NCBI GenBank assembly: GCA_016748015.1
Contig: JAAOMT010000400.1
Coordinates: forward strand, 310,001-374,000
Length of the DNA stretch: 64,000 nucleotides
Origin: Geosiphon pyriformis uo1
Taxonomy: Eukaryota > Fungi > Glomeromycota
Direction of reading: 5' to 3'
Positions 1 to 56,222 of this stretch are shown in pieces (position 1 is the stretch's first letter; each line of letters begins with the position of its first letter). The notes beneath the pieces were generated by a model. The model saw nothing but the letters and a program-made list of their open reading frames with translations, was not told the origin of the DNA and ran no database searches. The translations under genes and the position numbers were made by a program.

Positions 1-3000
1 AGGTATTATCATGCCTTTAAGCTTGCCAAATCTTTGTGAGCCAAGAAGTCGGGCATTAGATCAGCTATTGAGAGAAAGATAGAGAGTTTTGTGGTCAACA
101 AAGACCACACAATCCATAGTGTTTTGGAATGCCCATTCCGCAAAGTGGTGTTAGATCATTTGGTCTCTGATGGCGGCTTGATTTTGGACTCGGTAGAGAT
201 TAAAAATAAGGTTGATAGTATAATAGAGAGCTGGACAAGGAAGAGGGCCATGTTGAAAAGTGTTCCCAATTTGTGGCAGTGTCAATACCTGCCATTGGAT
301 TATGTTGATAATAATGCTTTTTTGGATGTGATGAATGCTATTAATTTGGATGACTTGACATGTGTGATTAAGAATTTGCCAAATGGTAAAGCTGCTGGCT
401 TGTCTGGCATTTCAAATGAACTTTGAAAACATTGTGATAGTTCTGTGCTAGGCTTGCTTTTGGACCTTCTGAACATTTGTTTGGTGTGTAAGTCAATTCC
501 CTATTGTTGGAAGGAAGCTTGGGTGTCAATGATTCCCAAGTCCTATGAGTGAGAAGGTGTTTTAACAAATACTAAACTGATTGCTTTAATTGAGACTGCC
601 CATAAGATTCTTTCTAAGTTGTTGTCTAACAGAATTTCTTTAACATGTAGTCTATTCAACGTACTCCATGGAAACAATTTTTTAGTGCTTAAGGGAACAA
701 CCACTTAGTCTCCTATTTTTGCCATTGGTTCGGTTGTTGAATACACTTTGAAGAAGGATCATGAGCTTTGGCTTGTGCTACAAGATATGCACAAAGCCTA
801 TGACTCTGTAGGTTGGCATTACTTGCATAATAGTTTGGTTTGAATCAAAATGTGTGGGCATTTTATTAGATTTTTTGGTTCAATTCACAATGACCACATT
901 AACTGAGTTATGACTGATTTTGGTCTAATGGATGGCTACTGGGTGCATGATAGTCTTGATCAGAGTGAGGTTTTCTCTCCTTTGCTGTGAAGAATCTTTT
1001 ATGACCCTCTTTTGTGTGAGGTTAAGAGACAAAAAAGTTTGTGTGGTTACCAAATTGATACTAAATTTGTAGCTAAGACTGGCAGAATAGAAAACCAAAG
1101 CAGTTTGACTTTTTTTTTGGCTGCTGGTGTATTCGTGGATGATACCATCTGGATGGAAAGCAGTCAGGCTGCCACTTAGTATATCTTAAACACAGCGAGT
1201 AAATTTTTTAAAATAAACAACATTTCTATCAATAATGAAAAAACTGTAGCCATTCTTATCAATCAGAAGGTTAGTAATACTTCATTGTTAATTAGTGGTC
1301 TGCCAATTTCAATTGCTTGCAGGAAGAAGTCTCATCAATACCTTGGCATTTATTTGTCATCTGAGGAGTTGTCCAAACCGAGCTTGGCTAAGGTGCACAT
1401 GGATGTTAGGTTTTTTGTCAATTTGGTTTTTAAGAAAGCTATTTTGGACAAGCAGTTTCTTTATCTAGTATCAGCTGTGTTGTAACCAATTATCAGTTAC
1501 AGGACTCAGTTTAGCTTTGTCTCTAGGAATGTGTATATAAAGTGGAATACATTGATCAGAAGAAAGTTGAGACTTAAAACTGGTCTTCCAAGAGACTTTC
1601 CCAATGAGGCCCTTTATCATTCTTTTTTGTATGATTTAAGATCTTTTGAGCAGTTGCAAACTGAATGCAAGGTGGCTTCTGTGTTGTGTTTCTTAAACGC
1701 TGATGGTATTCTTGGTCATTTGTTCAATCATAGATTTCTGGATCTTTAAGTCTTGGGTTGGTCACCTATTCACCCTCTACATTGTCTGATTAGGTTACGT
1801 GTCAGTCCAGTCAATAATTTTTTGGCAAAAGTCATTAGAATTTTTTTGGACTGTGGCATGTTTCTTGGCAATTTCTTTGTTTCTGCATTCCAATTTTCTG
1901 GTAGAACACCAATATCTGTAGTCCTAGATGCTTCTTTGTTTTATGATGTCTCTTTGTCTCTCAGAAAGTTTGGGATCACCTTTGCTGAGCAGTTATATAC
2001 CAAAAAGGGTTTAATTTTTAATTGGAAAAGCTTTTGTCATTGGAAAAGACTTGATTCGAGGGGTCCTGTCCCTCATTGGTTCACTTTAATTTGTGACTTT
2101 TTGGATTGATCTTCTACTTCTGATGGTTTGTACATTGAAGGTTCACAAGATATAGATGTTTGCAGTTTGGGTGCAGTTTTCGGATTGAGCCATTGTTTCT
2201 TTTCAGCAAATATGAGGGTAGTCAATGTTTACACTGATGGATCATTGAAAAATTTGAGTTATGTGAAATGAAATATGATGCTGCTGCTTATTTCTTGGAT
2301 TTGCACATGAGTATTGGTGCTAAGATTGGTGGATTGGTGTCTTCGACTATGGCAAAACTGCAGACAATTGCTTTGGCATTAGAGTGTGTTCCTCCTGACA
2401 GTTCTGTGGTGGTTTATTCAGACAGTCAGGCTGTATTGGATGCATGTGTGGCTGAATCTGCTCTGGTGTCTCTGGATTTCTGTAACTGTTGTTGGATGGA
2501 ATGACATGGCATTGTCAATTTAATTAGAGAAAAGTGGCTTGTTGTTTCTTGGCATAAGGTAAAAGGACATTTAGGTGTTGTAGGTAATGAGTGTGCTGAT
2601 AAGTTGGCTGGTCTAACTGTGAACTCTTCTTTGGTGCTTTCTGTTTTAGTTAAAGAAAAATTTATCATGGCTACCAGGAAGGCAGTGTCTGAGAACGTTC
2701 ATTATTTTGCTCATGAGATTTTTAGGTCTATTAATCAGGTCTGCTGGGAGGTTAGTCCTGGTTTCAACATTGTTGATGACAGTTTGCTTGGTAATGTGAA
2801 CTGGTTTTGTACTGCTTCAGTGTGGCATCTTGACTTCCATATGGCAGCCAGCTTTACCAGTAAATCTACGGCTGGTTTGCGCTCTTATTTTTTAAAGGCT
2901 TTCTACTGTTGTCTCCCAGTTGCTGTGTGAAAACATCTGTATAGTAAAGTCTACCCGAGTGTCTCATGTCTGCATTGTGATAAGATGGAAAGTTCCAACC

Positions 3001-3509
3001 ATTTTTTTGTTTGCACATTTGATTCTGATGCTCATAAGAGCATTCTCAAGTCTCATCTGGCTAAGTGGCAAAGTGTTTCTGGATTGGACTTGCGTGTGTC
3101 TTATGTTTTACAAGTGCTCTCTCTGTACACATCTGATGATGTGTTGTATACTACTGTGGGCAAAGATTTTGTGTTTAGGGATTGGGTTTAGAAAGCTTCA
3201 TCTATTCTAGGTCATACCAAGGTTGTGGGAAAGTTTATTGTTGATTTTGTTTGTGAATTGGGTGCTGCTCACTGCTTGAATATTTGGGTGGTTAGAGTTA
3301 AATATAGGGCTTTGATGGAAAAAGGTGGTTTAATTCCACTTGATCATTCTGTGTATCCTGTAACTCATGGTTTGTTATGCATGTTTTCTGCTGGGGTGAT
3401 TAGGTTGCTTGGAATTTCCAAGGCAGTTGGTGTCTGTTTTGGTTTTTATAAACATAGCTGCTTTTTTTTTGGTATAAATGGTATGGTTTCTGTTCTGATA
3501 GATTCATAG
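1..3509 (+). pseudogene. LINE ORF2 (reverse transcriptase, RNase H, CCHC zinc motif), with multiple stops and frameshifts
   Basis: ORF fragments 91-426, 1285-1485, 1531-1749, 1753-2109, 2268-2504, 2604-2930, 2985-3191 and 3225-3509 are collinear pieces of one polyprotein. Many breaks look like TGG>TGA, CAA>TAA or CGA>TGA changes. Confidence 0.9.
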
Positions 3510-4126: not shown

Positions 4127-4153
4127 ATATATATATATATATATATATATATA
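4127..4153. repeat. (AT)n microsatellite inside an extremely AT-rich tract (3648-4593)
   Basis: Perfect alternating AT run read directly from the sequence. Confidence 0.9.
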
Positions 4154-5519: not shown

Positions 5520-5776
5520 ATGTTAATTCTTAATTTTTATTGGTGTTTCTTAATTTGTTAGATTTTTTGTATCTATTTTAACTAAATAACTAGATTGTAT
5601 TATGTTTTTTTGTTATTATTAAACTAATTATTAATCTTTTATTTTTTATTTATTAACTAATTTTATTAATTAAATATAATAATATAGGCTTTTTTTATAT
5701 AATTTTAATGATAATTTTTATAGTATATATTGTAATTTTTGTATTAAAAACCATAAAAATTTACTAATAATATTAA

Positions 5777-5940
5777 TTTTTATTTTTTTTATTTTTATTT
5801 TTTATTATTATTTAATAAGTAAGATTTAAATACTATTTAGTACAATACATTAAACCAAGTAATCTAAACTAAGCACAAATTATGCATTTTTTATACATAA
5901 CCAGCCATGTGAATCAGTTAAAGTAATACTATAAATTTAT
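5777..5940 (-). mobile_element. Severely 5'-truncated LINE copy (3' UTR plus A-rich tail only)
   Basis: The reverse complement (…GTGCTTAGTTTAGATTACTTGGTTTAATGTATTGTACTA…TAATAATAAAAAA) aligns with the LINE 3' end at about 3497-3647. Differences are mostly C>T/G>A. Confidence 0.82.
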
Positions 5941-5952
5941 TTTTATAGATAT

Positions 5953-6823
5953 TTTTATTCATAAAATATAAAAATTATATATTAGTACATAAATTAGCCA
6001 ATCAGAATAGACATAGTAAAAGTGAAATTTTAGGATTCTTTTTAGAGAAATTGCAGGATTTCAAAATTACAGGATTTTCATATAAAGAATTACAGAATTC
6101 AAGAATTTCTGAATTTCTGGCTAGAAAATTGAGAAATTCAAAAAATCTCATATAATAAAATTTATATATATATAATGATAGTATTAAAAGCAAAAAAAAG
6201 AATTCTTAATTAGAATCTCCAGTTTCAATTCCATATTTATTCTTTTATATAATAATATTTTATGACTTGAAATAAGAACATCAAATATTAATAAAAATAT
6301 TTATTACTATTACAATCTATTTTTTGCTATTAACAATTTATGTTAATAATTGCTAATACTTAACTATACTAGACCAATAGTTCTTAATCATGGCTATTAA
6401 CAGGATATTAATTCTTATTTTCTTTTTTTTTTTTTTTATTTTCACTTATTTTTTTTATTTCTTTGTTGTTTGTTGATTTACTAACTGATTAAAAAAATTA
6501 AGCACTAAGTAATTAATATCAAAAATAGCTTAGTAAAAGACTCCAAAAAAAGAGTATAGAGTTTAAAAAATTTATAAATAAGCTTACCAAAAGAGCACAA
6601 CTGCCAGAATAAACTAGCCATCATGCTAAAAAAAAAAATTTGTCAAAATTGCAATTCTGGAAGGCTATTAACACAACCAGTAAATTTCTGTTCATTATAC
6701 AAAGAACTCAATTAAAATCTTCAAATTACAAAAATCTTTAGATATTACTAATTATATCACTTATTAAGCACCAAGTTATGGGTTTTTTATTTGTTTTCAG
6801 ACCCCAAATAAACATCTGTAATA
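5953..6823 (+). repeat. 5' LTR of B1 (U3 with GAAATT(G/T)CAGGATT-type tandem repeats)
   Basis: Homologous to the reverse complement of LTR 62041-62897. Ends TGTAATA and is followed by TT-TGG (PBS). The left end is decayed, so it is approximate. Confidence 0.8.
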
Positions 6824-6825
6824 TT

Positions 6826-6840
6826 TGGTGCTCTCTGTAA
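6826..6840 (+). promoter_or_regulatory. Primer-binding site of B1 (TGGTGCTCTCTGTAA)
   Basis: TGG start 2 nt after the LTR end, complementary to a tRNA 3' CCA end. Confidence 0.75.
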
Positions 6841-6887
6841 AATATAATCTAACAGAAAACTAACACCAACAACAATCATTCAAAACA

Positions 6888-17401: not shown

Positions 17402-18395
17402 TGTTATCAGTAGAATTTTAGCTATCAATTAGCATGAAATTACTCTTATAATTTCTATAAATTAATTAATATATTAATATTATTTCAAATTATCACTTAT
17501 TATTTAATCAATTATCACATATCACAATTCAATTAAATAATCCAATTAGTATGACAGAAAGTAGAATGATCAAATTACACAATACCCTGAACTTTGTAAC
17601 ATTCTAAAATTCGCCGAAATTTACAGAAATTCGCCGAAATTTATAAAAATTCGCCAAAATTATGAATAGTTCACCCAAATTAATCAATAGTTCAGTGAAA
17701 TAACTTATAGTTCATCAAAATGTATCTTTAGTTTGCCAAAATTTAAGCAAAGAAAAAAAGTGCAAGTCCATAGACTAGTACTACAACAAGTTGTATAAAA
17801 GAAGAGCTTTTCTCTTTAAGAAAATGTATCTTACTTTAGATTTATCACTTAGAATCATTCCTACACACAAAAAAAAGAAATAAATATCAAATAATTCGAA
17901 AAACCAAATTCTTTAATTATTGCACTTGGAACATCCCCAAAACCCAACTAGCATTTTGAAATTGATTAGCTACCAATTTCAGTAAACTGTTAGTGACTCC
18001 AGGCCTGGATAGAAAACGTTTCCCTTGACAGAATTCTATTTCTTTTACATTTTTTTTACTTTTCTTTTATTTTCTTATTATAATTATTAGGGTAGTCTAC
18101 AGACAAGATTCTTGTAGAAGAGTTAACTTTCACAACAAAGTAACTACACATTTTTAGTGAGCTTCCAGATGAGCAATTCCTGGGAAAGAGTTGATGTTTA
18201 CTACAATGTAACTACATAAAGTAACTGGCAAGAAATTGCCCATTTCACTTATAAGCCCAGCAAATTCAAATTATAGAAGATAATTTGAAAATAAATTCAG
18301 TTACTGGAGGTCCAACTACTTCCTAGAAACGTAAATTCACAGCAAATCAACATTAACAACATTCAAGAAAAGAGACCAAAAAACCTTCAGTAACA
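17402..18395 (+). repeat. 5' LTR of A
   Basis: Near-identical to 36942-37904. Has 3 copies of a 20-bp AATTCGCCGAAATTTACAGA-type unit, against 2 in the 3' LTR. Confidence 0.95.
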
Positions 18396-18413: not shown

Positions 18414-21400
18414 AAATAACACAGCAACAACAAATTCAAAGTGGTGACCATACCAGACACAGCAACTCTAGAATATTACCAGTCAATTTACACCCACTGC
18501 AAGCAAAGATTCAACATTTCAGACGGAATTGAAGTTGTCAAGAAATCAGTATACCAATACATTGAAAACTGCATCAACAATTATTTTTTTGGAAACTACA
18601 ACATTTCAGAAGTCAGAAGCAATCTCTACAATAATTTAGTGCACTATTCACGATTGAGAACAGAAGACCTGAACAGTGAAACACTTGCTATCTACTTCCA
18701 AAAACTTAATTTTAATATTATTGAGTATTGTGAAGAAAAATACCCAGTACAGTCTCAATACTCTATTGACTTTGAATCAGAGACAAAAACAAGCAACAAA
18801 GGCAAACAAAGATTGAAGCAATACTCAAAAACCACTCTAAACACTCTAACACTACAAAAGACAACTGCCAAACATTTGCAAACACCTGAACAAAGAACCA
18901 GTGTCAAATTACCATTTTCTATTACACCATTTCCAATTTTACTTGTTCAACCACAAACACCAAATTTACCACTCAACCACTTCTTCAGACCAGAAGATTT
19001 TCAGTCACCTAATCCTACTCAACAGCAGAAACCAATATCAACAAGTGCTAATATCATTGATTACTTATAGGAAAATGAAAGTAATCATTTAGAAAGCTTG
19101 GAAAGTAAAGAAACTGAATCTGAACCAGAAGAAATTATAGAAAATGAAGAAGAAATAACAACTGCTTACATTGCAAAAATCTCAGAATTTACTGGTAAAG
19201 ACAATGATACCAGTCCTCAAGAATGGCTTAACAAAGGTTAAAAAGCAAGAAATGCAAATGGTTGGATTGCAGCAAGAATGCTCAAAGCAATCCCATACTT
19301 TCTTTAAGGAACTGCAGGAGAATAGTTTGAAAACTTAGAAGAACTATTTGAAAACTGGCAAGCATTCAAAGATGCTTTCTTACAACAATTTACTAACAAC
19401 AACACCTTTATTACTCTCCACAATCACTTTCACAATATCAAACAAGAAACATCTGAAACTGTCATGACCTATCTTGGAAGATTCAACAAACTTCTCAAAC
19501 AAATTTGACAATTGAAAACCAATGACTACTATTCAAATGCCCAAATTCTGGATCAGTTTATAACAGGATTAAAAGACAAACTGATTAAGAAAGTCTGCCC
19601 ACATGCTCCAGCAGACTTAGCAACTGCCATTAGACATGCAAAGAGCTATGAAATGGCAATGGAAGAAGCAAATCACACCAAGCTTGTAAATCTTGCAATT
19701 GGAGAAACCAGCTTAGCAGCTGAAAAAAAGATAGACTAACTCACAAAGAAGGTTGAAAGCTATTTTACAAACCAACAACAACAGCAGCAACAACCACAAA
19801 GATATCAACCACCACAACGATGCAACCAAAACAATTTTGGATTATTCTCCAACAACCAACCTCAAAATTGTCATTATTGTGGAATTCCAGGACACTGGAA
19901 ACGAGATTGCAGAAAATTGCAAAGAGACCAACAAAACAGAAGTAATCAACATTATTCTTTACCACAACAATTTTACTACCAACCTCTACCACCAACTTAT
20001 TATTTACCAAGACCACAAAATCAAAACAGTTACTATCAACCAGTTTCACAACCAATGCAGCAACAATATTAGCAACTTTTATTAATTCAACCATATCAGA
20101 CACCACCAATTCAACAATATTAAGTACCAGCAAAAAGATTGGTTCAACATAACCAATTTACACCCCAAAATCAATTTCAGAATAACAATAACAGAATCAA
20201 TTCCAATAACCAGTTGGTTCTCCGAAATTCTGGTCAGCAAAAACCCAATCACTATTACACTCAATCCAGTTATCTTACAATACCAGAGAAATCGGATTTT
20301 CAACAACTTGCACTTTTTGAAGGTGAAGTTGCAGCATCCAGATCAAACCCTTCCAACAACACTATTCTACCAGTTCAAATTGCCCAAAATGCCAACCTTT
20401 CAGATATATTCCCATTCGAATTTAAAGCAAATAAATCACCATTTTTACTTAGTAATACAACAGCTAATAAACAAAAAGCTATTACTGTCATGTACACTGA
20501 AACTACAGTAGAAGGAAAACCCATCCGACTAATTCTAGACAGTGGATCAGCTGGAAGTATTATCACTTACCAGTTAATACAACAGCTTCAAAGAACTGTT
20601 AACAGACCAGCCCAAACTGTAATTGTTACAGCAGATAGTATGAAAAAGACACCAGTAGGAGAAATTGACAATTTTCTATTTACCATTGATGAAATCACCA
20701 TTCCAGTTAAAGTTCTAGTCATGGATGCACCCCAATACCAAGCTCTGGTCAGAAATGATTGGCTTCTTAAGGCCAATGCAAACTTGGACTGAGAAACTCA
20801 GGAACTAAAAATCTCATACCAAAAACAATACACCATAGTATCTGCTACTTGTGGTACTTTTAACAAACAATTAGAAAAAGCCCCAGTATTTGAATTTGAA
20901 GAGGAGAAAGAAATACCACTTACTGAAACCTACACAGCTCTTGGATTAACATTCAATTGGGCTGAAAAAACAGAACAAGAGATTTTTAAAGAATCAAGAG
21001 AATGGAAGAAAGTTAGATATTCTATACCAGAACCACAGAAACAACCACCTTATATTCCACTTAAATGCAAAGATTACAACAAAAAACTTTCATCAATGGG
21101 AGCATGTATTTCTCCAGAAGAGGAATATGAAACTCATATCTGTTACTTTTGCAAAGCATGCCATAGAGAACGATTTGGATTTCCAAAAAGAAATGGAAAA
21201 TGGGACAAGACATCTTGCCTTACATGTGGAGATATGCTACCAGAAGAATGCAACTGAATTAATGTTGCAATGAGAGGAAAAGTATGTAATCAAACCTGTT
21301 AATATGCTTTATCAATTTCAGAAAAAGTCAGAAGAGGAACACCATTTGATGCAGCATACAACAGTGCTCTCAATAAACTTTACCACTATCCTCATGATGC

Positions 21401-21776: not shown

Positions 21777-22606
21777 TGTTACGGTTTAAGAATTTAGTAA
21801 AAAGAATCATAAAAATAATACAAATTATTCAATCATAATATAGCACAGTAATAATTTTAGAAAGGTAATAATTAACATAGTAGCAAACACCATCTCACGA
21901 TAGTGGCAAGCACCAGTTCACAATAGCAGCCAACACCAACTGGTGATAGCAGCAAACACCAGGTTGAAATATCAAAAAAAAAGTATTTTCTCATAGAACT
22001 ACAAACATGTATATATACAGTAGTTTTAATATTGGGAAATAATCAATCAAGTAATAAAAAATCATAACTTATCAAATCATACTTTCAAATTAAATATCCC
22101 AAGAAACCTTTAAAAATCAAAAAGAAATGAAAAAGAATATTTAAAACGGAACTATCACAACCCAAAGTATTAAGAAACTTACTTGTATTATTTATTGAAT
22201 GAAACTATCATTCATCAACTGAATCCCTTGGAAGAATAATCCTTGATCAAAATTATTCACGTTGTTACTAATTGATAAAAGCTTTATTGTGAGAATTAGA
22301 AAAGCACTAAAGACTATTAACATTCTGTGTTTCTAGATTAGAGAAACACATCAGGCAATTGCAAAGATAGCCTCAGAGAAGACCCCAGACAGTGGATAGA
22401 TTTCAGTTCAGCCTCTAAGAAAGAGTACATAAACACACACAACAATTAAGAATTAAAGAATAACTTATATCGCAACAGTAAAAAGAAAGCCTTCAGTGTA
22501 ACAGTGACATTATCACACAAATAGAATTGAAGAACTCACAAAAGACTGATTGCAATTAAAGCAAGATATCAGCAATTAAATATAACAAGAAAACCATCCT
22601 GTAACA
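21777..22606 (+). repeat. 5' LTR of E
   Basis: Matches 31494-32361 except for a 38-bp indel and transition substitutions. Confidence 0.95.
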
Positions 22607-22608
22607 TT

Positions 22609-22625
22609 TGGTGAACCCTACGAGG
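22609..22625 (+). promoter_or_regulatory. Primer-binding site of E (TGGTGAACCCTACGAGG)
   Basis: TGG start 2 nt after the LTR. Its complement ends …GGGUUCACCA. Confidence 0.8.
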
Positions 22626-22688
22626 AAAAAAAATCAAAAAGGAAATAATAATTAGCAATAATTCATTGCTAAAAAGGAAAAGACAAAA

Positions 22689-25600
22689 GTGGTGACAAAA
22701 ACCCCTAATCTTACTGTTCTTGAATTTTGCCGTGCTATTTACACACAAAATCAAAGTGATCTTGGATTACCAAAAGGGTGTTGTCCAGCAGAATCTGCCC
22801 TCACTTATTATATCAACGCCAGAATAAATTATCATATAGGAAAGGAAGAAGAACCACACGACGCAAAACTTGGATTGTATAGAGAATTATCACAATACAC
22901 TACAAAAGAAGTAGCAGTAATAGCCGCAACTATTGTCAAAATCCATCGAGAAATTGAGCAATACGCCAACAAAAATTTTCTAATATCCACAGGAAACACT
23001 AGGGAACACGCCAACAAAACCAAAGAAAATTTAGAAACTAATCAGGAAAGTAACCAGCAAAAACTAGGAACACCAGCTCAAACGCCAAAGAAAACTGTCA
23101 CTCAATCAATAAAGAAACAACGTATTTATTCACCAGAAGATAAATCATACCATTTTTCACTAGAAAATAAGATACAAATTCCATTAGGAGCTGCATCATC
23201 ATCAACATCAACTCCACAAATGCCAAAAACTCCTAGTTATATTGATAAAATTAAACAACGTAACTGGGGAGACATACCAATTACAGGAGGATATTCATCA
23301 CTATTCCAAAACCCTCTTTTTCAGCCAAAATTTAGAACGGGGTTTGAAAACCGTGAAGAGGAGTCTGAATCGGAATCCGAAAAAGAGACCAGCGAAAAAA
23401 CAATCACAAGACCAGTCACTGAAACAAGCAGCCAGTCCAGAAACCAAGAAACTCGTGATTAAGAGGAAGAACCGGATATAAGGGAAGCCACCTTTAGGAA
23501 CGCTCAAGGAAATATCATCCCACCTCCTCTTAAACCAATAAACCCACCAGCAGAAAACGGCAATGAAATGACCACACCATATATTATAAGACTAACAGAT
23601 TTCTCAGGAGAGGAAGAAGAAATGGATGTGCACACATGGCTCAGAGAAGCACAAAAAGCCATCCAGGCAAATAACTGGAACAACCAAAGAGCAATTCAAA
23701 CATTACCTTTCTTCCTGAAAGGCACAGCCGACTCGTGGTATTAAAGCCTGGAAACAAAACCCACGAGCTTCGCCAAATTTAAAAATGCACTCCTGGAGTA
23801 TTTTAGCGACCCAAATGCCGTAATCCAACTACAGAACGAATTCAATACTATCAAGCAAAATACCAGTGAAACTGTCACCCAATACCTTGCTCGATTCAAT
23901 CAAATTTGCCATTAAATTGAAATGATTGAACAAGAATACTACACTGATCCTCAGGTCTGTCTCTTATACACATCTCAAGAATTCCTCCAAATTGAGCCAG
24001 ACAATACCACCAGCAGTTGCCACCGAAAATAGCAGCCTCGCAGCTATTTTTCCTTTTGAATTAGAGGAAAACAAGGCTATGTTCAGTGGAGCAGCATTGG
24101 ATGAAAAACACCCAATCACTGCTATGTATACAGAAGCCACTGTAAACAATACCCCAATTAAACTTATCTTAGACAGCGGATCCGCTGGAAGCATCGTAAC
24201 GCTTCAACTAGTAAACCAACTGGGTTTCAAAGTTGATCGTGCCGCGACGTCCCAAATCATAACAGCCAATGGAAGTACAAAGCTGCCTCATGGCGAAATT
24301 GACTCATTCCCTTTCGAAATTAATGGCATAGTAATACCTACAAAAGTATTAGTAATGGATGCTACACAATATCAAGCGTTAGTAGGGAATGACTGGCTAA
24401 CAAAAGCCAATGCCACCTTAGACTGGACCACCCAAGAGCTTCTGATCAATTATAATGGCCACCAGGCCAAAATTCCAGCCACCTGTGGCCACTTCTAAAA
24501 ACCCAGTGCCAACCAAAGACCTACCTTNNNNNNNNNNNNNNNNNNNNTCAGATTGAAGCGATTGAACAAGGATACTACACTGATCCTCAGGTTTTAAATC
24601 AGTTTATTAGAGGATTAAAAAGCAGCATTTTAGGAAGAGTACGTCCTGCCCACCCTAATTCCTTACCAGAAGCCGTTACGCTCGCCAGAGCCCTTGAATC
24701 AGCTGAGAAAGAAGCTAACCATAGTCAAATAGTTAACATGGTAATGGAGGAAAATAAGACAGAAACATTAAAGAAAAGAGTAACGCGATTAGGGGAGGAA
24801 CTCTTTAAGAAAATAGAAAGTTACCTCATCCCGGATCCGAGAAAAAATACATACCAACCACTTCAAAGACGCAGCCAGGAAGTCAGCAACAGTCGAAATA
24901 ATCGCTCGTTGCGCCAGGAATTCAGAACAGAAACACACGCCTGCCATTTTTGCAAACGCGTAGGACATTTGATTAGTCAATGTCGAACATGAATGATGCA
25001 GGAAGCATGCGAAAATAATTACTACGTGCCACTCCAAATGTCCAGAAGCCAGTACATGCCAATACCACGCCAATATTCTACCACGTATCAAAATCAAAGA
25101 GCTTACCAGCAACAGCCCATGATAGCCAACCCGAATTGGCGTTCCGAGGCCCGAAATCAGCCCATGTAGAACCAAAACGCATTGGTCCAGAGGAATTCAA
25201 ACCGCGCCAGAACCAATCAGCAAACCAATCCAAACTACCAAAATTATCAACAAACTTACCTTAATATACCGGAAAACCTGATCATCGGAAACAATGATGG
25301 TAGAAACATAAACAGAACCAAAAATTCCTCCAAATTGAGCCAGACAATACCACCAGCAGTTGCCACCGAAAATAGCAGCCTCGCAGCTATTTTTCCTTTT
25401 GAATTAGAGGAAAACAAGGCTATGTTCAGTGGAGCAGCATTGGATGAAAAACACCCAATCACTGCTATGTATACAGAAGCCACTGTAAACAATACCCCAA
25501 TTAAACTTATCTTAGACAGCGGATCCGCTGGAAGCATCGTAACGCTTCAACTAGTAAACCAACTGGGTTTCAAAGTTGATCGTGCCGCGACGTCCCAAAT

Positions 25601-28600
25601 CATAACAGCCAATGGAAGTACAAAGCTGCCTCATGGCGAAATTGACTCATTCCCTTTCGAAATTAATGGCATAGTAATACCTACAAAAGTATTAGTAATG
25701 GATGCTACACAATATCAAGCGTTAGTAGAGAATGACTGGCTAACAAAAGCCAATGCCACCTTAGACTGGACCACCCAAGAGCTTCTGATCAATTATAATG
25801 GCCACCAGGCCAAAATTCCAGCCACCTGTGGCCACTTCTAAAAACCCAGTGCCAACCAAAGACCTACCTTCAAATTTGAGGAAAATCCAGCACTACCAGC
25901 CATCAAAACCTATCAGCTCTCTTGGGCTGATGACCAAAGAACAGGACTACCAGCCATACCAACGTGGACCAGCGAAGAAAGATCTGAATGGAACCAGGTA
26001 AGTTCACAAAGAAACCACCAGCGATGCAGACCAAAGCTAGAATGTTTGGTTTGCAAGAAGAAACTCTTGTCTATGACTATGTGCAGCACACCAGACGAAG
26101 ACCCAAGAAACCCCACCCACTACTATTGTAACCATTGTAACAAAGAAAAATATGGTTACCCAGAAAGACACGGAAAATGGGACGAGGAACCGTGCCTCGC
26201 TTGTGGAGAACCGTTACCAAGAAGGTGCGACTGAAATGACTTACCAGGCAGAGGAGGAACATGTGACGCAACTTGCCAATACACGATCCTCATCTGTGAC
26301 TGGGTAAGAGGAGGAACGCCATTCAAAGCAGCGTTCAACAGAGCATTAAAAAGACTACAGCACTACCCACACAATGAGGATGAGTTGTACAACACCACAC
26401 AAGCCAAAGTAAGAGGAGGAACTGCCGAAGAAATACGACGTTGGAAAGAGTCAGCCAAAGTAGCCGACAAAGTCACCAACTACAACATGTTCGACCCAGT
26501 GGACGAATTCCAGGACTACTACCAACAACTATGCCTCACTCGACAAGAGCAAGAACAATACCTTGCCCAAATCAACACTTACCTCTGCAAAAACTGTCTC
26601 ATTCCATGCCAAAATCAGTGCTGTGAAGAGTGTCAAGACGAAAGGGACTTAGAAAGAAAAATGGAAATTGAGAATCAGCAGTCTCAAAATCAATCAATAA
26701 ATCAACAAGACTCACCTGACGGTCCCGAGTCAGAAAAATTTGTAGCCTATACTGACCTAGAACAGGTGACCGACATCCAATACTTCGACAACGGGCACTT
26801 AGGAATAATATCCGAAAGAGCCCATCCAACCAACGCCGGATTCGATCTACGTTATCTGGAAGACCAATCCACAACATTACCACCCAGGAACATCACCAAA
26901 ATCGACCTAAAAATAGCAGTTGAAATTCCGCCAGGAATAATGGTTCAAATGGCGTCGCGATCAAGCCTCGTGAAAAAAGGAATAAGTATTCAAGGAGGAG
27001 TAATTGACTCCGAATACACTGGAAATTTGATGGTTTTGCTACAGAACAATTCAGAAAAGCCTTATACCATTGAATCTAAGGAAAAGATTGCACAAGCAAT
27101 TTTCCTATCATTGGTAAAAATTGGGAAATTTGTGCCAGTAGAAAATTGTGAGGAATTGTCACAAACAACGAGAGGAACTTTTGGTTTCGGATCGATAGGA
27201 AAAGGAATTGAAGCGAATTTCACTGAAACAATAGAGGAAAAAGGCGAAGTAATTAAAAATGAGTGGTCCATCACGCTCCTATCATATGGAAAATCAGAAA
27301 TAAGAATAAAAAGGACAATTAAAAAAAAAGACCTAATATTTGAGCCCTACCCAGAAACTTGCCAACAGTTTCTCATAGGACTTACTAACCTTTTTATTCC
27401 AGCTGATAAAGCTCAATGGATAAAAATTCCTATTGCAAACACCACAGAAGAACCCGTCTACATTCCGGAAGATACTATCATTGGATACCTCGGAATAGAA
27501 CTAGAAAACGCGTCAACACCACAAGAAATTCTAAATTTTCCAGAAATTGCCCTCTACTGTGAACTCACTTTAATAAATTGGCAACAACTGGTAGAATGCT
27601 ATCAATTTACGCCAGAAGAATTGGCCAAATTAAACATTGGAACAATGGATCCTGACCAACAGCGACAATTAAAAGCATTAATTTTAAAATACTCTGATAT
27701 ATTTTCAAGAAATGGCGAATTTGGAAGAACCAACTTGGTTCAACACCAAATCCCCACTGGAGACGCCAGATCTGAAAAACAACGCACTTACCATGTCCCA
27801 CCAATGGAGCATAATTTTATCAGAGAAGAAGTCCAAAGCATGTTAGAAAAAGGAATAATACAACCATCAATGAGCCCATGGTCCTCACCAGTTGTTTTAG
27901 TAAAGAAAAAGAACAGAAAAATTAGATTTTGTGTCGACTATCACAAACTAAACAGCAAAACAACCAAAGACTCATACCCAATACCGTTAATTGACGAAAT
28001 CTTCGACGTTTTTGGAGGAGCAAAATGGTTTTCTACACTGGACTTGACCAGTGGGTACTGGCAAGTGGAAATGGACCCAAAGAACAGGCATAAAACAGCA
28101 TTCACAACACAAAATGGCAATTATGAGTTCAATGTAATGCCATTTGGATNNNNNNNNNNNNNNNNNNNNNNNNNNNNNNNNNNNNNNNNNNNNNNNNNNC
28201 AAAGACTAATGGACGTAATTTACTCCAGAATCCTGTGGCAATCCGTTGTTGTCTACTTGGATGATACAAATGTTTTCTCGTCAAAATTCACAGATTATCT
28301 CCAACATTTACAACAAGTTTTTGAGAGATTGAGACACACTGGACTTAAACTAAATCTAGAAAAATGTTTCTTTGGGAAAAATAAGCTAGTATTTTTAGGA
28401 CACGTAATTGGAAAAGATGGAATAAAACCAGATCCATCAAAAATAGACAAAGTGAAAAATTTTCCAGTACCTCGAAACGTTTTAGAAGTTAGAAGCTTTT
28501 TAGGACTCGCATCTTACTATCGCCGCTTTGTAGAAAACTTTTCAAACATCACCAAACCCTTTAATTACCTACTATCTAAAAATGTGAAGTTTGAATGGAC

Positions 28601-29060
28601 TGAAGCACAACAAAAAGCTTTTGAGTATCTTAGACAAAAGCTCATTGAATCACCAATAATGATCTATCCGAATTTCAACAAGAAATTCATTTTGGCCACA
28701 GATGCCTCTGGAACTGGACTTAGAGCCATTCTGTTACAAAAAGATGATAATAGAAGAGAACATATAATCACTTATGTCAGCAAAAGTCTCAGTACGGCAG
28801 AACAAAACTACGCAGCACATGAACTTGAATGCTTAGCAGTAGTCTGGAGTTGTGTTCACTTTGACACATATTTACGGTACCAATCCTTTGAGATTACGAC
28901 AGATCATAGAGGTCTGGTCTGGTTAAATAACAAGAAAGCGCTAAAAGGAAAATATGCCAGATGGTCACAAACGTTAGCACCATACGATTATATTATCAAA
29001 TACAAAGAAGGTACCAAAAATGCTAATGCTAACTGTTTGTCAAAAATGAGACACACATAA
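22689..29060 (+). pseudogene. gag-pol: E ORF1: N-domain, Gag, CCHC, protease, Cys-rich domain, dUTPase, RT and RNase H in a single frame with a few nonsense changes
   Basis: Fragments 22689-23462, 24738-24992, 25182-25841, 26046-26234 and 26385-29060 are all in the same frame. Motifs CHFCKRVGHLISQC, LILDSGSAGS, AGFDL, RSS, GGVIDSEYTG, KIAQ, RGTFGFGS, YLDD (28254-28265), TDASG, ELECLA and TDH. Confidence 0.93.
23957..23975 (+). other. Nextera/Tn5 mosaic-end adapter remnant (assembly artefact)
   Basis: Exact CTGTCTCTTATACACATCT, joining gag to a duplicate of the protease region next to an N gap. Confidence 0.97.
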
Positions 29061-29092
29061 AAAAAATCACCAACCCACCTGCCACAACAACA

Positions 29093-30895
29093 ATGAACAA
29101 CCACCTTTACAAAAACCTCAGCCAATACTTGGAAACACTACAAATAGACGAAGAAATGCCAGTAAAAAAGCTAATTAAGCTCCAAAAATTAGCAAAACAC
29201 TATTTCATCCAAAATCACATACTTTATTACCGGAATCGACAAAATCCAGATAATCCATTAAGAGTTATAACCACGGATGAAAAAGAAACTATCTTATTTA
29301 ACATGCACTCAGATATTCATTCAGGCCACTTTGGAAAAACAGCAACCATCCAACGTGCAATTAGCCGTTACTATTGGCCAAAAATGAGTTCAGACATAAT
29401 CCAATACATAAGAAATTGTGACCCGTGCCAACGAAGAGGAGGAGCAAAAACAACGGAATTATTAAGACCAATAAAAGTTGGACAGCCATTTGACAGAATC
29501 GGAATTGATTTAGTTGGACCCTTACCAATAACAACAAGAAACAACCATTATATTGCAGTAGCCATGGACTATCTCACCAAATGGCCAGAAGCTAGAGCTA
29601 TTAAAACAGCTGATGCTATTTCCATAGCTCAATTCATACATAAAAACTTNNNNNNNNNNNNNNNNNNNNTTACCTGTTGAACTTACTATCCCAACTTATC
29701 CAAGTGACACTATCATGGAAGCAACATTCCAGGAAACACTACTTAGAAGAACATACGAATTAATGAGAACTTTAGAAAACAAAAGAAGAAAAGCAGCACA
29801 AAATATTGAACAATCACAAGAACAACAAAAAGTGAGACATGATAACCAGTTACCAGATAATATAATTAGCTACAAAATTGGAGATAAAGTATTGTTGCAT
29901 CGTATAAAAAAGATGTGTATAAGAGACAGGATTTAGTTGGACCCTTACCAATAACAACAAGAAACAACCATTATATTGCAGTAGCCATGGACTATCTCAC
30001 CAAATGGCCAGAAGCTAGAGCTATTAAAACAGCTGATGCTATTTCCATAGCTCAATTCATACATAAAAACTTAATTTGCCGACATGGATGTCCACAAGAA
30101 TTGCTATCAGATCAAGGCACACACTTCGTAAACAGCACCTTAAAAGAACTTAGCCAAAAATTTGGAATCAAGCGACCACTGTCATCACCATACCACTCTC
30201 AAACAAATGGATTAGTTGAAAGATTTAATCGCACATTATGTGAATCACTGGCGAAAATTAGTAATAAACATGAAAAAGAATGGGATTTGTTCATACCAGC
30301 AGTACTACTAGCATATAGAACAGTAAAACAAGATACTATACAATTCACACCGTTTGAACTAGTTTATGGAAGAAAAGCCACATTACCCGTTGAACTTACT
30401 ATTCCAACTTATCCAAGTGACACTATCACGGAAGCAACATTTTAGGAAACACTACTAAGAAGAACATACGAATTAATGGGAACTTTAGAAAACAAAAGAA
30501 GAAAAGCAGCACAAAATATTGAACAATCACAAGAACAACAAAAAGTGAGACATGATAACCAGTTACCAGATAATATAATTAGCTACAAAATTGGAGATAA
30601 AGTATTGTTGCATCGTATAAAAATGGAAAAACAGTGGAGTGGAAAATTTGATCACAAGTGGAATGGACCATTTTATATTCATGAAATACTTGGAAATAGA
30701 GCATACAAGTTAAAACTAGATGATAAAATATTAAGAAAAGCAGCACATGGTAACCGGCTGAAATTCTATTACAGTAAACCAGTAATAACAACAAAAACAC
30801 CCAGAATTGGAACACAATTACCTTTAATTCTACCAGAACAAATTCCACGAGATTTAGAACCAATAGTTTTAATTGAACATTATTCGAAAAAATAA
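29093..30895 (+). pseudogene. E integrase (separate ORF), locally duplicated by gap-fill artefact
   Basis: ATG at 29093. HHCC motif (HSDIHSGH…CDPC), catalytic core IGIDL / SDQG / QTNGLVERFN, GPF motif (KWNGPFYI), stop at 30895. Confidence 0.9.
29911..29929 (+). other. Nextera/Tn5 mosaic-end adapter remnant (assembly artefact)
   Basis: Exact AGATGTGTATAAGAGACAG at the junction of two overlapping integrase segments. Confidence 0.97.
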
Positions 30896-30979
30896 TTAAT
30901 TTTAGATCACAGCAAAAATGATTTAACAACCATAAAAACGCATGCAAAAGATTCCAAAATAACAGTCAAAATTAAAACA

Positions 30980-31480
30980 ATGATACTTATTCCAGAAAAC
31001 ATCAACAATATAACTCAACAATTAGTTGAAAGCTTACAACAATTAAAATCCGATCTAGAAATCACAGTTAATAGCTCCAAAATAACATACATAAAAAGAA
31101 CAATAGAAAATCCAAAAACAAGAAAAGAACATAATTTCGAACNNNNNNNNNNNNNNNNNNNNATACAAACATTATACTCAAAAGACTTAACTAGAGTGTT
31201 TGACAAAACAACTATCCAACTATTAGAACCTTTCATTGGAAAAACCAACATTACATTCCATTCACAAACAGTTTACAGAATTTTCAAAGCATTTGAAAAC
31301 TGTCACAAATTATTGTTGGACCCAACCATGAACATAATAACAACCAACAGTATTGGACGACTTACCAACTTGCAATTTCAAGAATTACAACAACAAATTA
31401 ATAACACAGTATTGAACCATTATAGTAACTTAGAATTTAATGAAGAAATTAACTTCGATTTCGACGGAGCTCAATCTTGA
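30980..31480 (+). CDS. E ORF3, unknown function, in the env position (spans an N gap)
   Basis: ATG in AAAACAATG context, ending at the PPT. Homologous to ORF3 of A, D and I. Confidence 0.75.
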   Translation: MILIPENINNITQQLVESLQQLKSDLEITVNSSKITYIKRTIENPKTRKEHNFEXXXXXXXIQTLYSKDLTRVFDKTTIQLLEPFIGKTNITFHSQTVYRIFKAFENCHKLLLDPTMNIITTNSIGRLTNLQFQELQQQINNTVLNHYSNLEFNEEINFDFDGAQS

Positions 31481-31493
31481 AAGGAGGGGATAA

Positions 31494-32361
31494 TGTTATG
31501 GTTTAAGAATTTAGCAAAAAGAATCATAAAAATAATACAAATTATTTAATCATAATATAGCACAGTAATAATCTTAGAAAGGTAATGATTAACATAGTAG
31601 CAAACACCATCTCGCGATAGTGGCAAGCACCAGTTCACAATAGCAGCCAACACCAACTGGTGATAGTAGCAAACACCAGGTTGAAATATCAAAAAGAAAG
31701 TATTTTCTCATAGAACTACAAACATGTATATATATAGTAGTTTTAATATTGGGAAATAATCAATCAAGTAATAAAAAATCATAACTTATCAAGCAACAGA
31801 TCCAATTTTATCCAACAAACTCCACTTTAAATCATATTTTCAAATTAAATATCCCAAGAAACCTTTAAAAATCAAAAAGAAATGAAAAAGAATATTTAAA
31901 ACAGAACTATCACAACCCAAAGTATTAAGAAACTTACTTGTATTATTTATTGAATGAAACTATCATTCATCAACTAAATCCCTTGGAAGAATAATCCTTG
32001 ATCAAGATTATTCATGTTGTTACTAATTGATAAAAGCTTTATTGTGAGAATTAAAAAAGCGCTAAAGACCATTAACATTCTGTGTTTCTAGATTAGAGAA
32101 ACACATCAGGCAATTGCAAGGATAGCCTCAGAGAAGACCTCAGACAGTGGGTAGATTTTAGTTCAGCCTCTGAGAAGGAGTACATAAACACACACAACAA
32201 TCAAGAATTAAAGAATAACTTATATCGCAACAGTAAAAAAAAAGCCTTCAGTGTAACAGTAACATTATCACACAAATAGAATTGAGGAACTCACGAAAGA
32301 CTGATTGCAATTAAAGCGAGATATCAGCAATTAAATATAACAAGAAAACCATCCCGTAACA
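31494..32361 (+). repeat. 3' LTR of E
   Basis: Preceded by PPT GAAAGGAGGGGA and followed by TSD CCAG. Confidence 0.95.
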
Positions 32362-36254: not shown

Positions 36255-36961
36255 ATGATTATTGCTTGAAATATTCAACAAATATCCCAAAAGTTAATGT
36301 TAGCCTTGAAAACACTTCCTGACTTATCCATAACAATTAATCGAAGTCAAATTAATTATATTTAGAAAAAAACCACAGCCCCAGTAGTAAATCATCCACA
36401 GAACTATCACCCCTATAGAAAAAAACAAAAAGTCACTCTGAAAATAGGTTACTAAGACTTTTGAAGCAAGCACTAAAAGAAAATCTTTTAATTGCCCCTA
36501 TTGACATTTCACCAAATGCTACAATGCAACAAAAACTTCTACTACTTCTCAATGAACAGAACAATGAACACACCCCTATCTATAAATACTTTCACATTGA
36601 AAAGACACTTTATGAACAAAAACTGGAACTTGAAGCAACAAATTTTACTCCTGAAGCTATACAAAAACAAATTCACAATGAATTTAAAACAGCAGCTGGA
36701 CCAACAAACACTTGCTACAAACTTAGAACAGCTTTTAGACTTTATGATTTGTTTAATACTTGTGAAAATATTCTACAAAATCCAATACTGCAACCAATGA
36801 AAATCCAATATATTGGCAAACTCACAAAACTAAAATTTCAACAATTTTCAGACCAGATTACTTCAATTATTTTGGATTACTATCTCAATATCACAGATAG
36901 TGCTTGGACTTTGACAGAGCTCAGTTTTGAGGAGGAGATTATGTTACCAGTAGAATTTTAG
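36255..36961 (+). pseudogene. A ORF3, unknown function, frameshifted; runs through the PPT into the LTR
   Basis: ATG at 36255 (MIIA*NIQQISQKL…LSITINRSQINY). C-terminal ORF 36461-36961 is homologous to E ORF3. Confidence 0.72.
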
Positions 36962-37904
36962 CTATTAATTAGCATGAAATTACTCTTATAATTTCTATAA
37001 ATTAATTAGTATATTAATATTATTTCAAATTATTACTTATTATTTAATCAATTATTACATATCACAATTTAATTAAATAATCCAATTAGTATGACAGAAA
37101 GTAAAATGATTAAATTACACAATACCCTGAACTTTGTAACATTCTAAAATTCACCGAAATTTACAGAAATTCGCCGAAATTATGAATAGTTTACCCAAAT
37201 TAATCAATAGTTCAGTGAAATAACTTGTAATTCATCAAAATGTATCTTTAGTTCACTGAAATTTGATCAAAAAGAAAAAGTGCAAGTCCATAGACTAGTA
37301 CTACAACAAGTTGTATAAAAGAAGAGCTTTTCTTTTCAAGAAAATGTATCTTACTTTAGATTTATCACTTAGAACCATTCCTACACACAAAAAAAAGAAA
37401 TAAATATCAAATAATTCGAAAAACCAAATTCTTTAATTATTGCACTTGGAACATCCCCAAAACCCAACTAGCATTTTGAAATTGATTAGCTACCAATTTC
37501 AGTAAACTGTTAGTGACTCCAGGCCTGGATAGAAAACGTTTCCCTTAACAAAATTCTATTTCTTTTACATTTCTTTTATTTTCTTATTATAATCATTAAG
37601 ATAGTCTACAGACAAGATTCCTGTAGAAGAGTTAACTTTCACAGCAAAGTAACTACACATTTTTAGTGAGCTTCCAGATGAGCAATTCCTGGGAAAAAGT
37701 TGACATTTACTACAATGTAACTACATAAAGTAACTGGCAAGGAATTGGTCATTCTACTTATAAGCCCAGCAAGTTCAAATTATAGAAGATAATTTGAAAA
37801 TAAATTCAGTTACTGGAGGTCCAACTACTTCCTGGAAACGTGAATTCACAGCAAATCAATATTAACAACATTCAAGAAAAAAGACCAAAAAACCTCCAGT
37901 AACA
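36942..37904 (+). repeat. 3' LTR of A
   Basis: Matches 17402-18395 and is followed by TSD ATGT. Confidence 0.95.
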
Positions 37905-38755: not shown

Positions 38756-39585
38756 TGTTACTCATAAAAAGAAAAAACAGATATAGAAAATAGTAGACCA
38801 ATAGGAAAGTAATAGTCAGCACATAAGCATATTGCTTAGTAATATAGAGCAATATCAGAAATCACAGCATATTGCTCAGCAATGTAGAGCAATGTTAGAA
38901 AATTAGGGCACATTGCTCAAGAAATTATAGCACATTGCTCGAGAATGTGAGTAATCTCATAGAATATTAATTATGTATATATATAGCAGTAGTATTAAAA
39001 GAAGAAAAGACAGATCTTTCAGTTTAGATTTGATTTAAGCAACCTTCTATTCACAAATATCAATAAATAATTATTCACTATCTTAATCTACTTTCTACTA
39101 TCAATATAAAGTGTTAATAGTAATTGATACTTAACTACACTGGAACAATAGCTCTTGATTATGGCTATTAACAAGATACTAGCACTTATTGCCTTGGCTT
39201 GTTTCTTTATTTCTTTTTATTTTTTTTGTTATTTTTTTTTGTTTTACTAATTGATTAAAGAGAAAAAGCACTGAATTATTAACATCAAGAATAATCTGGT
39301 AAAAAACTCCAAAGAAAGAGTATAATATTGAGAATTTAAGAATAGTTTATTAGAAAAGCATTTTTGCTAGATTACTGATTACTATGCTGAAAAAGAAATT
39401 GGACAAAATTGCAATTCTGGGAGATTACTGAAATAACTATTGAATCTCTGTTTATTATACAAAAAACTTCACAACAAAACCTTCAGATCAACCAAAACTT
39501 TTAGATATTAACATCATTATATCAATTAAGCACCAAGTTATAAGTTTGTTATTTGCTTTGAGACCCCAAGTAATTACTTGTAATA
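38756..39585 (+). repeat. 5' LTR of D
   Basis: Collinear with 55393-56222. U3 carries GCACATTGCT-type tandem units. Confidence 0.93.
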
Positions 39586-39647
39586 TTTGGTACTTCTTGT
39601 AAGATATAATCTTACAAAGAACCAGTACCAACAACAATCATTCAAAA

Positions 39648-45847: not shown

Positions 45848-46468
45848 TGTTATGGATTAGAGTAACAAACTAATGGATAGCAAGGGAGAACAGGATTGTA
45901 AAGTAATAGAAATAATTAAAGAGAATTCAACTTTAAAGAGCGAATTGAATAAGTATAGATTCAATGTGTAAGATCAGTCTTATAAAATATCTCAGTCACT
46001 ATTTTTTTCAAAAAAAGGTAACTGAGGAATCTAAAGATAGAGGGATAGTCTATACTGTCAACAAATGATTACACTTGGTATAATTCTATGCTTCACATTA
46101 GTGCTCTTAAAATTTAATATCAAGTATTAAATGTGCTCTTCAGTCATATTTTATTCAATAATCTTCAAATGTTACACTTATACATTTCAGAAAAAGGGTA
46201 AAAATTAACCAACAAGTAATTTTTTATCTCAAGATGCTTGGATACTTAAAGGTAAGGAAAGGAAAATTAGCAATAAGAGAATAATTGAGATGAAAGTTGT
46301 TATTTTATTTATTCTTAATTATTTTGAACATGCTTTTCTATAGCTAAAAGATTTATCACTTATATAGCTGTCAAAAGTGGTCAATGATTAGGTCAATGAT
46401 CACTATCTAAAAATAGAGTGGCTAATACATGTGATAATTAATAAGAAGTATAAGTTTCAACCATAACA
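45848..46468 (-). repeat. 3' LTR of F
   Basis: Collinear with 52684-53350 but 46 bp shorter. Confidence 0.92.
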
Positions 46469-52683: not shown

Positions 52684-53350
52684 TGTTATGGGTTGAAGTA
52701 ACAAGCTAATAGATAGCAAAAGAGAACAGGATTGCAAAGTGATAGAAATAATCAAAAAGAATTCAACTTCAAAGAGCGAATTGAATAAGTATGAATTCAA
52801 TGTACAAGATCAGTTTCATAAAATATTTCAGTCACTATTTTTTTCAAAAAAAGATAACTGGGGAATCTAAAGATAAAGAAATAGTCCATATTGTCAACAA
52901 ATGATTACACTTAATATAATTTTATGCTTCACATTGGTGCTTTTAGAATTCAATATCAAGTATTAGATGTGCTCTTCAGTCACATTTTATTTAATAATCT
53001 TCAAATACTACACTTATACATTTCAGAAAAAGGGTAAGAAATAACTAACAAGTAATCTTTTATTCCAAGATGTTCAGATACTTGAAGGTAAGGAAAGAAA
53101 AATTAGTGATAAGAAAATGATTGAGATGAAAGTTGTTATTTTATTTATTTTTGATTATTTTAAACATGCTTTTCTACAGCTAAAAGATTCATTGCTTATA
53201 TAGCTGTCAAAAGTAGTCAATGATCAGGTCAACAGTCAGGTTATTGATCAGATTAATGATTACTATCTAAAAATAGAATGGCTAATTTATATGACATTAG
53301 TGGCTAATACATGTGATAATTAATAAGAAATATAAGTTTCAACCATAATA
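52684..53350 (-). repeat. 5' LTR of F
   Basis: TGTTATGGGTTGAA…TTCAACCATAATA, with the PBS adjacent at 52661-52677. Confidence 0.92.
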
Positions 53351-55379: not shown

Positions 55380-55392
55380 AAGGAGGAGATAA

Positions 55393-56222
55393 TGTTACTC
55401 ATAAAAAGAAAAAACAGATATAGAAAATAGTAGACCAATAAGAGAGTAGTAGTCAGCACATAAGTATATTGCTTAGTAATGTAAAGCAATATCAGAAATT
55501 ACAGCACATTGTTCAGCAATGTAGAGCAATATTAGAAAATTAGTGCACATTGCTTAAGAAATCATAACACATTGCTTGAGAATGTGAATGATCTCATAGA
55601 ACATCAATTATGTATATATATAGTGGTAGTATTAGAAGAAAAAAAAACAGACCTCTTAGTTTAGATTTGATCTAAGCAATCTTCTATTCACAAATATCAA
55701 TAAATAATTATTCATTATTTCAATCCACTCTTTACTATCAATATTTTATGTTGATAGTAATTGATACTTAATTACACTAGAACAATAGCTCTTAATTATG
55801 ACTATTAACAAGATACTAACACTTATTATCTTGGCTTGTTTCTTTATTTCTTTTCATTTTTTTTGTTATTTCTTTTTGTTTTACTAATTGATTAAAGAGA
55901 AAAAGTGCTGAATTATTGATGTCAAGGATAGCCTGGTAAAAGACCCCAAAGGAAGAGTATAACATTGAGAATTTAAAGATAGCTTACCAGAAAAGCATCT
56001 CTGCCAGATTACCAGCCACTACATTGTGAAAAAAATTGGACAGAATTGCAATTCTGGAAGGCTACTGAAACAACTATTGAATCTCTGTTTATTATACAAA
56101 AAACTTTACAACAAAACTTTCAGACCAACCAAAACCTTCAGATATTAACATCATTATATCAATTGAGCACCAAGTTACAGGTTTGTTATTTGTTTTGAGA
56201 CCTCAAATAATTACTTATAACA
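55393..56222 (+). repeat. 3' LTR of D
   Basis: Preceded by AAGGAGGAGA PPT and matches 38756-39585. Confidence 0.93.

Follow-up and report, generated by a model that had tools for sequence, protein, structure and literature searches.

The stretch of DNA analyzed here (the window; 64,000 nucleotides of the Geosiphon pyriformis uo1 genome) consists wholly of transposons, with nested Ty3/gypsy elements and LINE-like DNA identified by self-comparison and Pfam. The same searches found no host gene in the 64-kb window, and no tRNA was found in it. The elements and their parts, in window coordinates, are as follows.

1..3500, plus strand: decayed non-LTR RT/RNase H element, which we take from its motifs to be LINE-like
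17402..18395, plus strand: 5' LTR of element D, the host of E; target duplication ATGT
18420..19067, plus strand: N-terminal gag frame of D, against which 119 copies of the family were compared
21777..22606, plus strand: 5' LTR of element E; TG...CA ends; 17 private T/A states relative to the 3' LTR
22607..31493, plus strand: interior of E, with gag, protease, dUTPase, RT/RNase H, integrase and an extra 3' frame
22662..23459, plus strand: N-terminal gag frame of E, against which 63 copies of the family were compared
26808-27194 and 32360-33034: dUTPase of E (Pfam) and of D (via alignment to E), between protease and RT
31494..32361, plus strand: 3' LTR of E; purine tract before it; 13 private T/A states; 38 extra bases
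36942..37904, plus strand: 3' LTR of D, partner of 17402..18395
38756..39585, plus strand: 5' LTR of element F, the host of G (element D of an earlier note on this DNA)
45848..46468, minus strand: one LTR of element G (element F of the earlier note); its gag and protease are encoded on the minus strand; target duplication ATAC
52684..53350, minus strand: other LTR of G, partner of 45848..46468
55393..56222, plus strand: 3' LTR of F; target duplication GTGT/GTAT, itself G>A different between the ends

Element E is a Ty3/gypsy LTR retrotransposon, with TG..CA LTRs, a 4-base target duplication (CCAG) and the order gag-PR-RT-RH-IN. TG..CA-type ends and a 4-base target duplication are present in each of E, D, F and G. 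E (21777-32361) lies inside D (17402-37904) and G (45848-53350) inside F (38756-56222), and the inner element of either nest has the less diverged LTR pair, in agreement with the nesting order. In E, D and G an extra frame of ~190 codons without a Pfam match precedes the 3' LTR (30896-31480, 36419-36961 and 46438-47031), and relatives of the frame in E occur at 55068-55364 and 62993-63604. The very AT-rich stretch at 3600-6280 (14% GC), which has faint LTR similarity at 4584-5075, is probably an end state of decay.

The interior of E contains four N gaps. A 19-base sequence at 23957-23975, with its reverse complement at 29911-29929, lies beside N gaps and is presumably a Nextera/Tn5 end, and near-identical duplicated pieces are found at 23976-24527/25319-25870 and 29507-29910/29930-30623. 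The 19-mers and the duplicated pieces are assembly artefacts. The interior may also be partly collapsed from young copies, as its CpG o/e is 0.61 compared with 0.11-0.13 in D.

The two LTRs of E differ at 30 of 830 aligned columns (13 C/T, 17 G/A and no transversion). Eight of the differences are at CpG, 12 at TCA/TCT and ten in other contexts, on both strands. These counts reproduce those made by hand in the earlier note, which did not record a 38-base indel between the two LTRs. The D pair shows 42 transitions and 2 transversions, the F pair (38756/55393) 92 and 5, with three of the transversions adjacent at 39108-39110, and the G pair (45848/52684) 63 and 1. The first ~215 bp of two further pairs had been described in the earlier note, and the 19 differences with one transversion and the 26 with none given there are found in F and G, respectively. 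The four pairs together hold 227 transitions (112 C/T, 115 G/A) and 8 transversions, for a Ts/Tv of about 28; even at a Ts/Tv of 4, the probability of at most 8 transversions among 235 differences is 6e-14. The LINE family is transition-rich too, its copies differing at 996 transition and 109 transversion places.

The earlier note ascribed most broken reading frames to CAA>TAA, CGA>TGA and TGG>TGA/TAA. When the stops in older copies are aligned to element E, in alignments that are only about 45% identical, 44 of 67 lie opposite Q, W or R of E, which is a majority but not nearly all. The LTRs of D are only 4.6% apart, but its interior is without most CpGs and departs from the majority of the family in 20 of some 186 codons. 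D possibly transposed from an already mutated parent, or its LTRs underwent conversion.

Among metagenome relatives, 79 loci that are at most 58% identical, no usable diverged LTR pair was found. Control pairs of unrelated retroelements mostly have a Ts/Tv of 1.3-4. A few low-GC coding groups are higher, and some of these reach 8-26 but with balanced direction, so that Ts/Tv alone is not diagnostic in coding DNA. The elements with high Ts/Tv and balanced direction (L022, L027, L029-L032, L034 and L038) are low-GC intact Ty3/gypsy elements from metagenomes. Singleton C>T/T>C counts are balanced in three of four unrelated groups (67/62, 121/118 and 224/206), and the counting method thus does not create the bias; the fourth group shows a CpG-centred excess.

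An LTR pair alone gives no direction, and polarity was taken from other copies of the E and D families. Contigs from a sequencing run (run X1) contain other copies of the E family. Of the 17 places with T/A in the 5' LTR, 13 have C/G as the majority base in these contigs, the remaining four being outside the places listed; the places listed comprise 150 transitions and 3 transversions. Of the runs listed that hold the LTR, none is recorded as RNA. A protein search with the E gag frame gave 63 matches, all named Geosiphon pyriformis, and the D gag frame gave 150, of which the 120 listed all carry the same name. One D homolog is 100% identical to D's own letters over 44% of the frame, and P0169, a probable gene model of D's own locus, was excluded from the D set. 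Codons were counted where the reference element agrees with the majority residue and the substitution can be explained by a single possible base change; only residues within 11-residue windows that are free of gaps and hold 8 or more identities, and only columns covered by 8 or more copies, entered the count. Substitutions that were ambiguous (34 and 59) or multi-step (11 and 55) were not counted.

Among the 63 proteins of the E gag family, over 230 codons, C>T is found at 402 of 5013 opportunities (8.0%) and T>C at 11 of 7939 (0.14%), with transversions at 2-15 of 4455-7635 per class (0.04-0.2%). Family copies share ancestry and these counts are not independent events; we therefore also give counts by site, with 118 of 163 possible C>T sites mutated and 6 of 263 T>C sites. 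In the D gag family (119 proteins, 166 codons, from the 120 listed of 150 matches) the figures are 447 of 6921 for C>T and 107 of 15411 for T>C, the latter probably inflated by the heavier mutation of D itself. The changes run in one direction, C:G to T:A; they arose after insertion, on both strands and singly. The earlier note's description of near-pure C>T/G>A hypermutation between LTR pairs thus stands, with its polarity confirmed in both gag families. Mutation load per copy runs smoothly from 0 to 16%, and the rates imply an equilibrium GC of 2-4%. Both E LTRs share three T/A states where the family majority is C/G, which indicates that a lightly mutated parent probably still transposed.

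Contigs of two further runs (X2 and X3) lack six segments around the start of gag and the LTR (21777-23900, minus strand). Five of these segments have GT..AG ends on the minus strand; for the sixth, E has lost the donor at 22468, a position that is C in most of the family. The copy behind these contigs has C/G at 33 places where E has T/A and is nearly unmutated. The contigs look like a spliced antisense transcript of that copy, an RNA origin that we infer for runs labelled as probably DNA. In E's own letters the spliced minus-strand form has no open frame of more than 120 codons. The X2 and X3 contigs had no match to the LINE, and another run (X4) had none to E.

The earlier note held that the mutation is not limited to CpG and has a broad context. 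Every cytosine context is indeed mutated; however, CpG is the top target per site, with 32 of 59 changed in the LTR pairs compared with 193 of 943 non-CpG sites. After correction for multiple hits, CpG mutates 4-6 fold faster than other cytosines in two young LTR pairs (0.29 vs 0.05 per copy in the E LTRs), and among E gag copies the rate is 0.236 vs 0.061-0.088. Most raw differences fall outside CpG because CpG is depleted in the old elements (o/e 0.07-0.15). Outside CpG, C>T is about 50 times T>C in the E family, and enrichment after normalisation is not confined to CpG.

CA does not differ from CC and CT, either in the LTR pairs (odds 1.04, p 0.81) or in the gag families (p 0.12 and 0.47). 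CC and CT cannot be hidden CpGs on that strand, yet they mutate as fast as CA, and we therefore count non-CpG change in favor of all-context methylation. CHG is lower than CHH in the LTR pairs (p 0.051) and E gag and equal to it in D gag. The 5' base does have an effect. The rates for TC, CC, AC and GC are 0.113, 0.078, 0.035 and 0.031 in E, 0.096, 0.079, 0.035 and 0.064 in D, and 0.275, 0.241, 0.123 and 0.166 in the LTR pairs, where YC and RC differ with odds of 2.25 (p 1.6e-6). With a pyrimidine on the 5' side the rate is 2-3 fold higher on either strand, and the effect is kept within CC/CT sites alone, except for 5 GC sites in D. At CpG itself TCG is not above the others (8/18 vs 24/41 in the LTRs; 0.27 vs 0.25 for GCG in E gag), a comparison of few CpG sites (59 and 8). 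The prominence of TCA/TCT in the earlier note is present as a raw excess, but it is partly composition, and the real bias is the 5' pyrimidine.

Cytosines with a 5' pyrimidine are where APOBEC-type enzymes act and UV lesions form, and Geosiphon has a surface-dwelling, light-exposed habit. Sunlight could act on this soil-surface fungus, adding UV dimers at TC and CC to the decay of methyl-CpG. In the UV pattern a 5' pyrimidine raises the rate and a 3' T does not, as is observed here. However, UV also leaves CC>TT doublets and spares non-dipyrimidine sites. We find no excess of CC>TT, with 5 same-copy and 6 opposite-copy doublets in 151 CC sites, and ACA and GCA, which have no pyrimidine neighbour, keep rates of 2.1% and 3.7%, or 15 times the T>C rate in E. 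We regard a contribution of this kind as very unlikely.

Strand-coordinated runs were not found in the LTR pairs (p 0.36), nor under a site-rate null (p 0.68 and 0.48); a p of 0.02 for D, obtained with a cruder within-copy shuffle, is gone under the better site-rate null. At the 11 doubly changed CpGs, one LTR has TG and the other CA in every case, and both changes never occur in one copy. This is expected if the first change removes the methylation site, and the pattern is a mark of methyl-CpG decay. In the E gag family C>G shows no excess over background (3/4840). The composite RIP index is negative in all eight regions (-0.33 to -0.82).

APOBEC/AID-type editing prefers TC or CC and leaves strand-coordinated clusters, strand asymmetry and a C>G by-product. 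Editing of retroelement cDNA would account for the preference for TC over CC, which is present here, and an assembly or alignment artefact might be suspected from the N gaps, adapter-like 19-mer and duplicated pieces of E. However, the changes separate two LTRs of a single insertion, affect both strands to an equal extent and include one in a target duplication; the clusters, strand asymmetry and C>G by-product are absent; the X1 contigs confirm both the variants and their direction; and the same counting is balanced in three of the four unrelated retroelement groups. Both forms of this explanation are largely refuted, and we consider it the least probable of those weighed here.

Canonical RIP depends on RID/DIM-2 and a premeiotic stage, spares single-copy DNA and leaves strand-coordinated tracts in each round, although many light rounds could blur them. 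Relative to the spliced X3 copy, the E LTR has more differences per G/C site than E gag (15 in 135 sites vs 19 in 358, p 0.048), which is one hint of a repeat-pairing process. Canonical RIP, APOBEC-type editing and UV all fit poorly. The earlier note had proposed a RIP-like or deaminase-driven process, and part of this holds, in that the change is one-way C:G>T:A, on both strands, after insertion and in all contexts. However, the signature features of such processes, CpA bias, strand runs and C>G excess, are not seen, and methylation followed by decay fits better.

The explanation that we favor, with a probability of roughly 0.55, is that the host methylates repeat cytosines, heavily at CpG and more lightly elsewhere, and that 5-methylcytosine then deaminates to T. 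A DNMT1-type enzyme would mark CpG and a DIM-2-type enzyme the rest, where cytosines after a pyrimidine are predicted to be preferred. The methylated cytosines would deaminate to thymine one at a time. Single-copy genes would be spared, and the decay itself may silence the copies rather than being a by-product of silencing. The pattern agrees with what is expected of methyl-decay: CpG mutates fastest and is depleted with age, the doubly changed sites end as TG and CA, the events are independent and on both strands, and there is no C>G by-product. LTR families are affected. We infer 5-methylcytosine as the intermediate, and the non-CpG share would arise like the CpG share, from non-CG methylation by the DIM-2-type enzyme.

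The genome of the arbuscular mycorrhizal (AM) fungus Rhizophagus irregularis is roughly 28% GC. By LC-MS, 32.5-49.5% of its cytosines have been reported as methylated (PMC8298701), which would be more than CpG alone could hold at that composition. The same source states that the AM fungal clade has DNMT1, DNMT5, DIM-2 and RID. A 2026 review places RID in Ascomycota only and DIM-2 in Ascomycota and Phycomyces, and describes 5mC as near-undetectable in early-diverging fungi (PMC13297926); on RID in AM fungi and on 5mC levels the available parts of the two sources conflict. DIM-2 is reported to methylate CG and non-CG DNA, with its flanking preference stated to be unknown (PMC11315935), Phycomyces transposons are reported to carry CG and CHH methylation (PMC11258239), and patterns of CG and non-CG methylation are described as following enzyme sets (PMC7862722). 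In the literature examined we found no methyltransferase preference matching the 5' pyrimidine bias. Additionally, a non-CpG C>T/T>C ratio near 50 is very high for passive decay, which counts against methylation and decay as the explanation.

A genome-wide bias from weak repair of deaminated cytosine, such as through loss of uracil-DNA glycosylase or T:G repair, would be seen in transposons only since these are free of selection. It is consistent with the mutation of all cytosine contexts in the LTR elements, with the matching excess of transitions in the LINE family, with the distributive, strand-random pattern lacking a C>G excess, with the 11.9% GC of the spacer at 4001-5000, and with the dUTPase that the elements carry. 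However, the equilibrium GC would be hard to square with functional genes, and the CpG excess needs methylation anyway. The rates come from transposon DNA. We think it unlikely that such a defect is the cause.

A mutator dedicated to repeats and with a new context, either RID/DIM-2-like or a deaminase, would actively turn C into T at YpC and CpG where DNA is duplicated; it would be RIP-like in function and not in signature. The purity and size of the C>T bias argue for it, as does the sharp 5' context seen on both strands in three data sets, and the higher load of the LTR points weakly the same way. RID and DIM-2 are stated for AM fungi (PMC8298701), and a Dim2-dependent mitotic mutator is known in Zymoseptoria, where the mutations are reported not to follow methylation level (PMC8016269), so that an active step is possible in Geosiphon too. 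However, strand-coordinated tracts are absent, the loads are low and smooth, the lightly mutated parent of E probably still transposed, and CpG behaves as in ordinary methyl-CpG decay. A kingdom-wide screen reported RIP-like k-mer signatures only in Ascomycota, with Geosiphon absent from its species table (PMC12543289). We therefore hold this mutator to be a possibility of clearly lower probability than methylation and decay. It is similarly doubtful whether Geosiphon, and perhaps other AM fungi, have an active mutator of YpC plus CpG in repeats, a further RIP-like defence outside Dikarya to which CpA-based indices would be blind.

Whichever step produces it, the strong one-way cytosine mutation described here scores negative on the composite RIP index, and claims of absence that are built on that index would miss it. 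AM fungi have been reported to be without RIP signatures (PMC8647823). From the spectrum, methylation of repeats is predicted to include non-CpG 5mC ranked TC > CC > AC/GC. LTR sequence makes up 41.2% of the Geosiphon genome (PMC11952901), and ages taken from LTR pairs or divergence landscapes would be inflated several-fold or more; the Geosiphon LTR expansion may therefore be younger than it looks. The 63 and 150 gag matches suggest that many Geosiphon 'hypothetical proteins' are gene models on decayed gag copies.

We found no paper on the transposon mutation spectrum of Geosiphon or on a TpC-biased mutator of fungal repeats in the literature searched, subscription papers being outside the search. 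The main text of a transposon survey of AM fungi mentions neither RIP nor deamination (PMC11952901). Gigaspora and Mucoromycotina are reported to lack RIP signatures (PMC8647823), Entomophthorales show index-based hints of RIP (PMC11105155), and rusts have negative RIP scores (PMC12210899), as far as the available parts of these sources extend. In Rhizophagus irregularis and Gigaspora margarita, which belong to the same subphylum (Glomeromycotina), transposons are heavily CG-methylated (PMC8647823, PMC8298701, PMC13443276). The available portions of these studies give CG sites or bulk 5mC and no mutation spectrum.

Canonical RIP in Neurospora and other Pezizomycotina (PMC12543289, PMC13297926) shares with the pattern in Geosiphon the one-way C:G>T:A change in duplicated DNA, the mutation of both LTRs and the AT-rich relics. 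In contrast, Geosiphon shows no CpA preference, has a negative composite index and no strand tracts, and is strongly depleted in CpG. The Dim2-dependent mitotic mutation of Zymoseptoria tritici is likewise C>T in repeats (>95% C>T, without a need for sex). However, >98% of it is reported at CA with CG spared (PMC8016269), whereas in Geosiphon CG is the top target and CA, CC and CT are equal. The TpCpG hypermutation of transposons in Pucciniomycotina (PMC3318451) shares the 5' T effect and CpG as a target, but in Geosiphon TCG does not exceed the other CpGs, and CpG accounts for a minority of the changes. The decay of methylated repeats described in Arabidopsis (PMC4090718) shares C>T loss in repeats methylated at CG, CHG and CHH, a GC content that falls with age, and the distortion of LTR dating. 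Geosiphon differs in being a fungus, in the Ts/Tv of its LTR pairs and in its 5' pyrimidine bias, and the decay is known here from sequence. The pattern in Geosiphon is therefore distinct from canonical RIP, from the CA-specific mutator of Zymoseptoria and from the TpCpG pattern of Pucciniomycotina, and most likely represents a form of methylation-linked repeat decay that shows an unexplained bias towards a 5' pyrimidine, in a lineage believed to lack repeat mutation.
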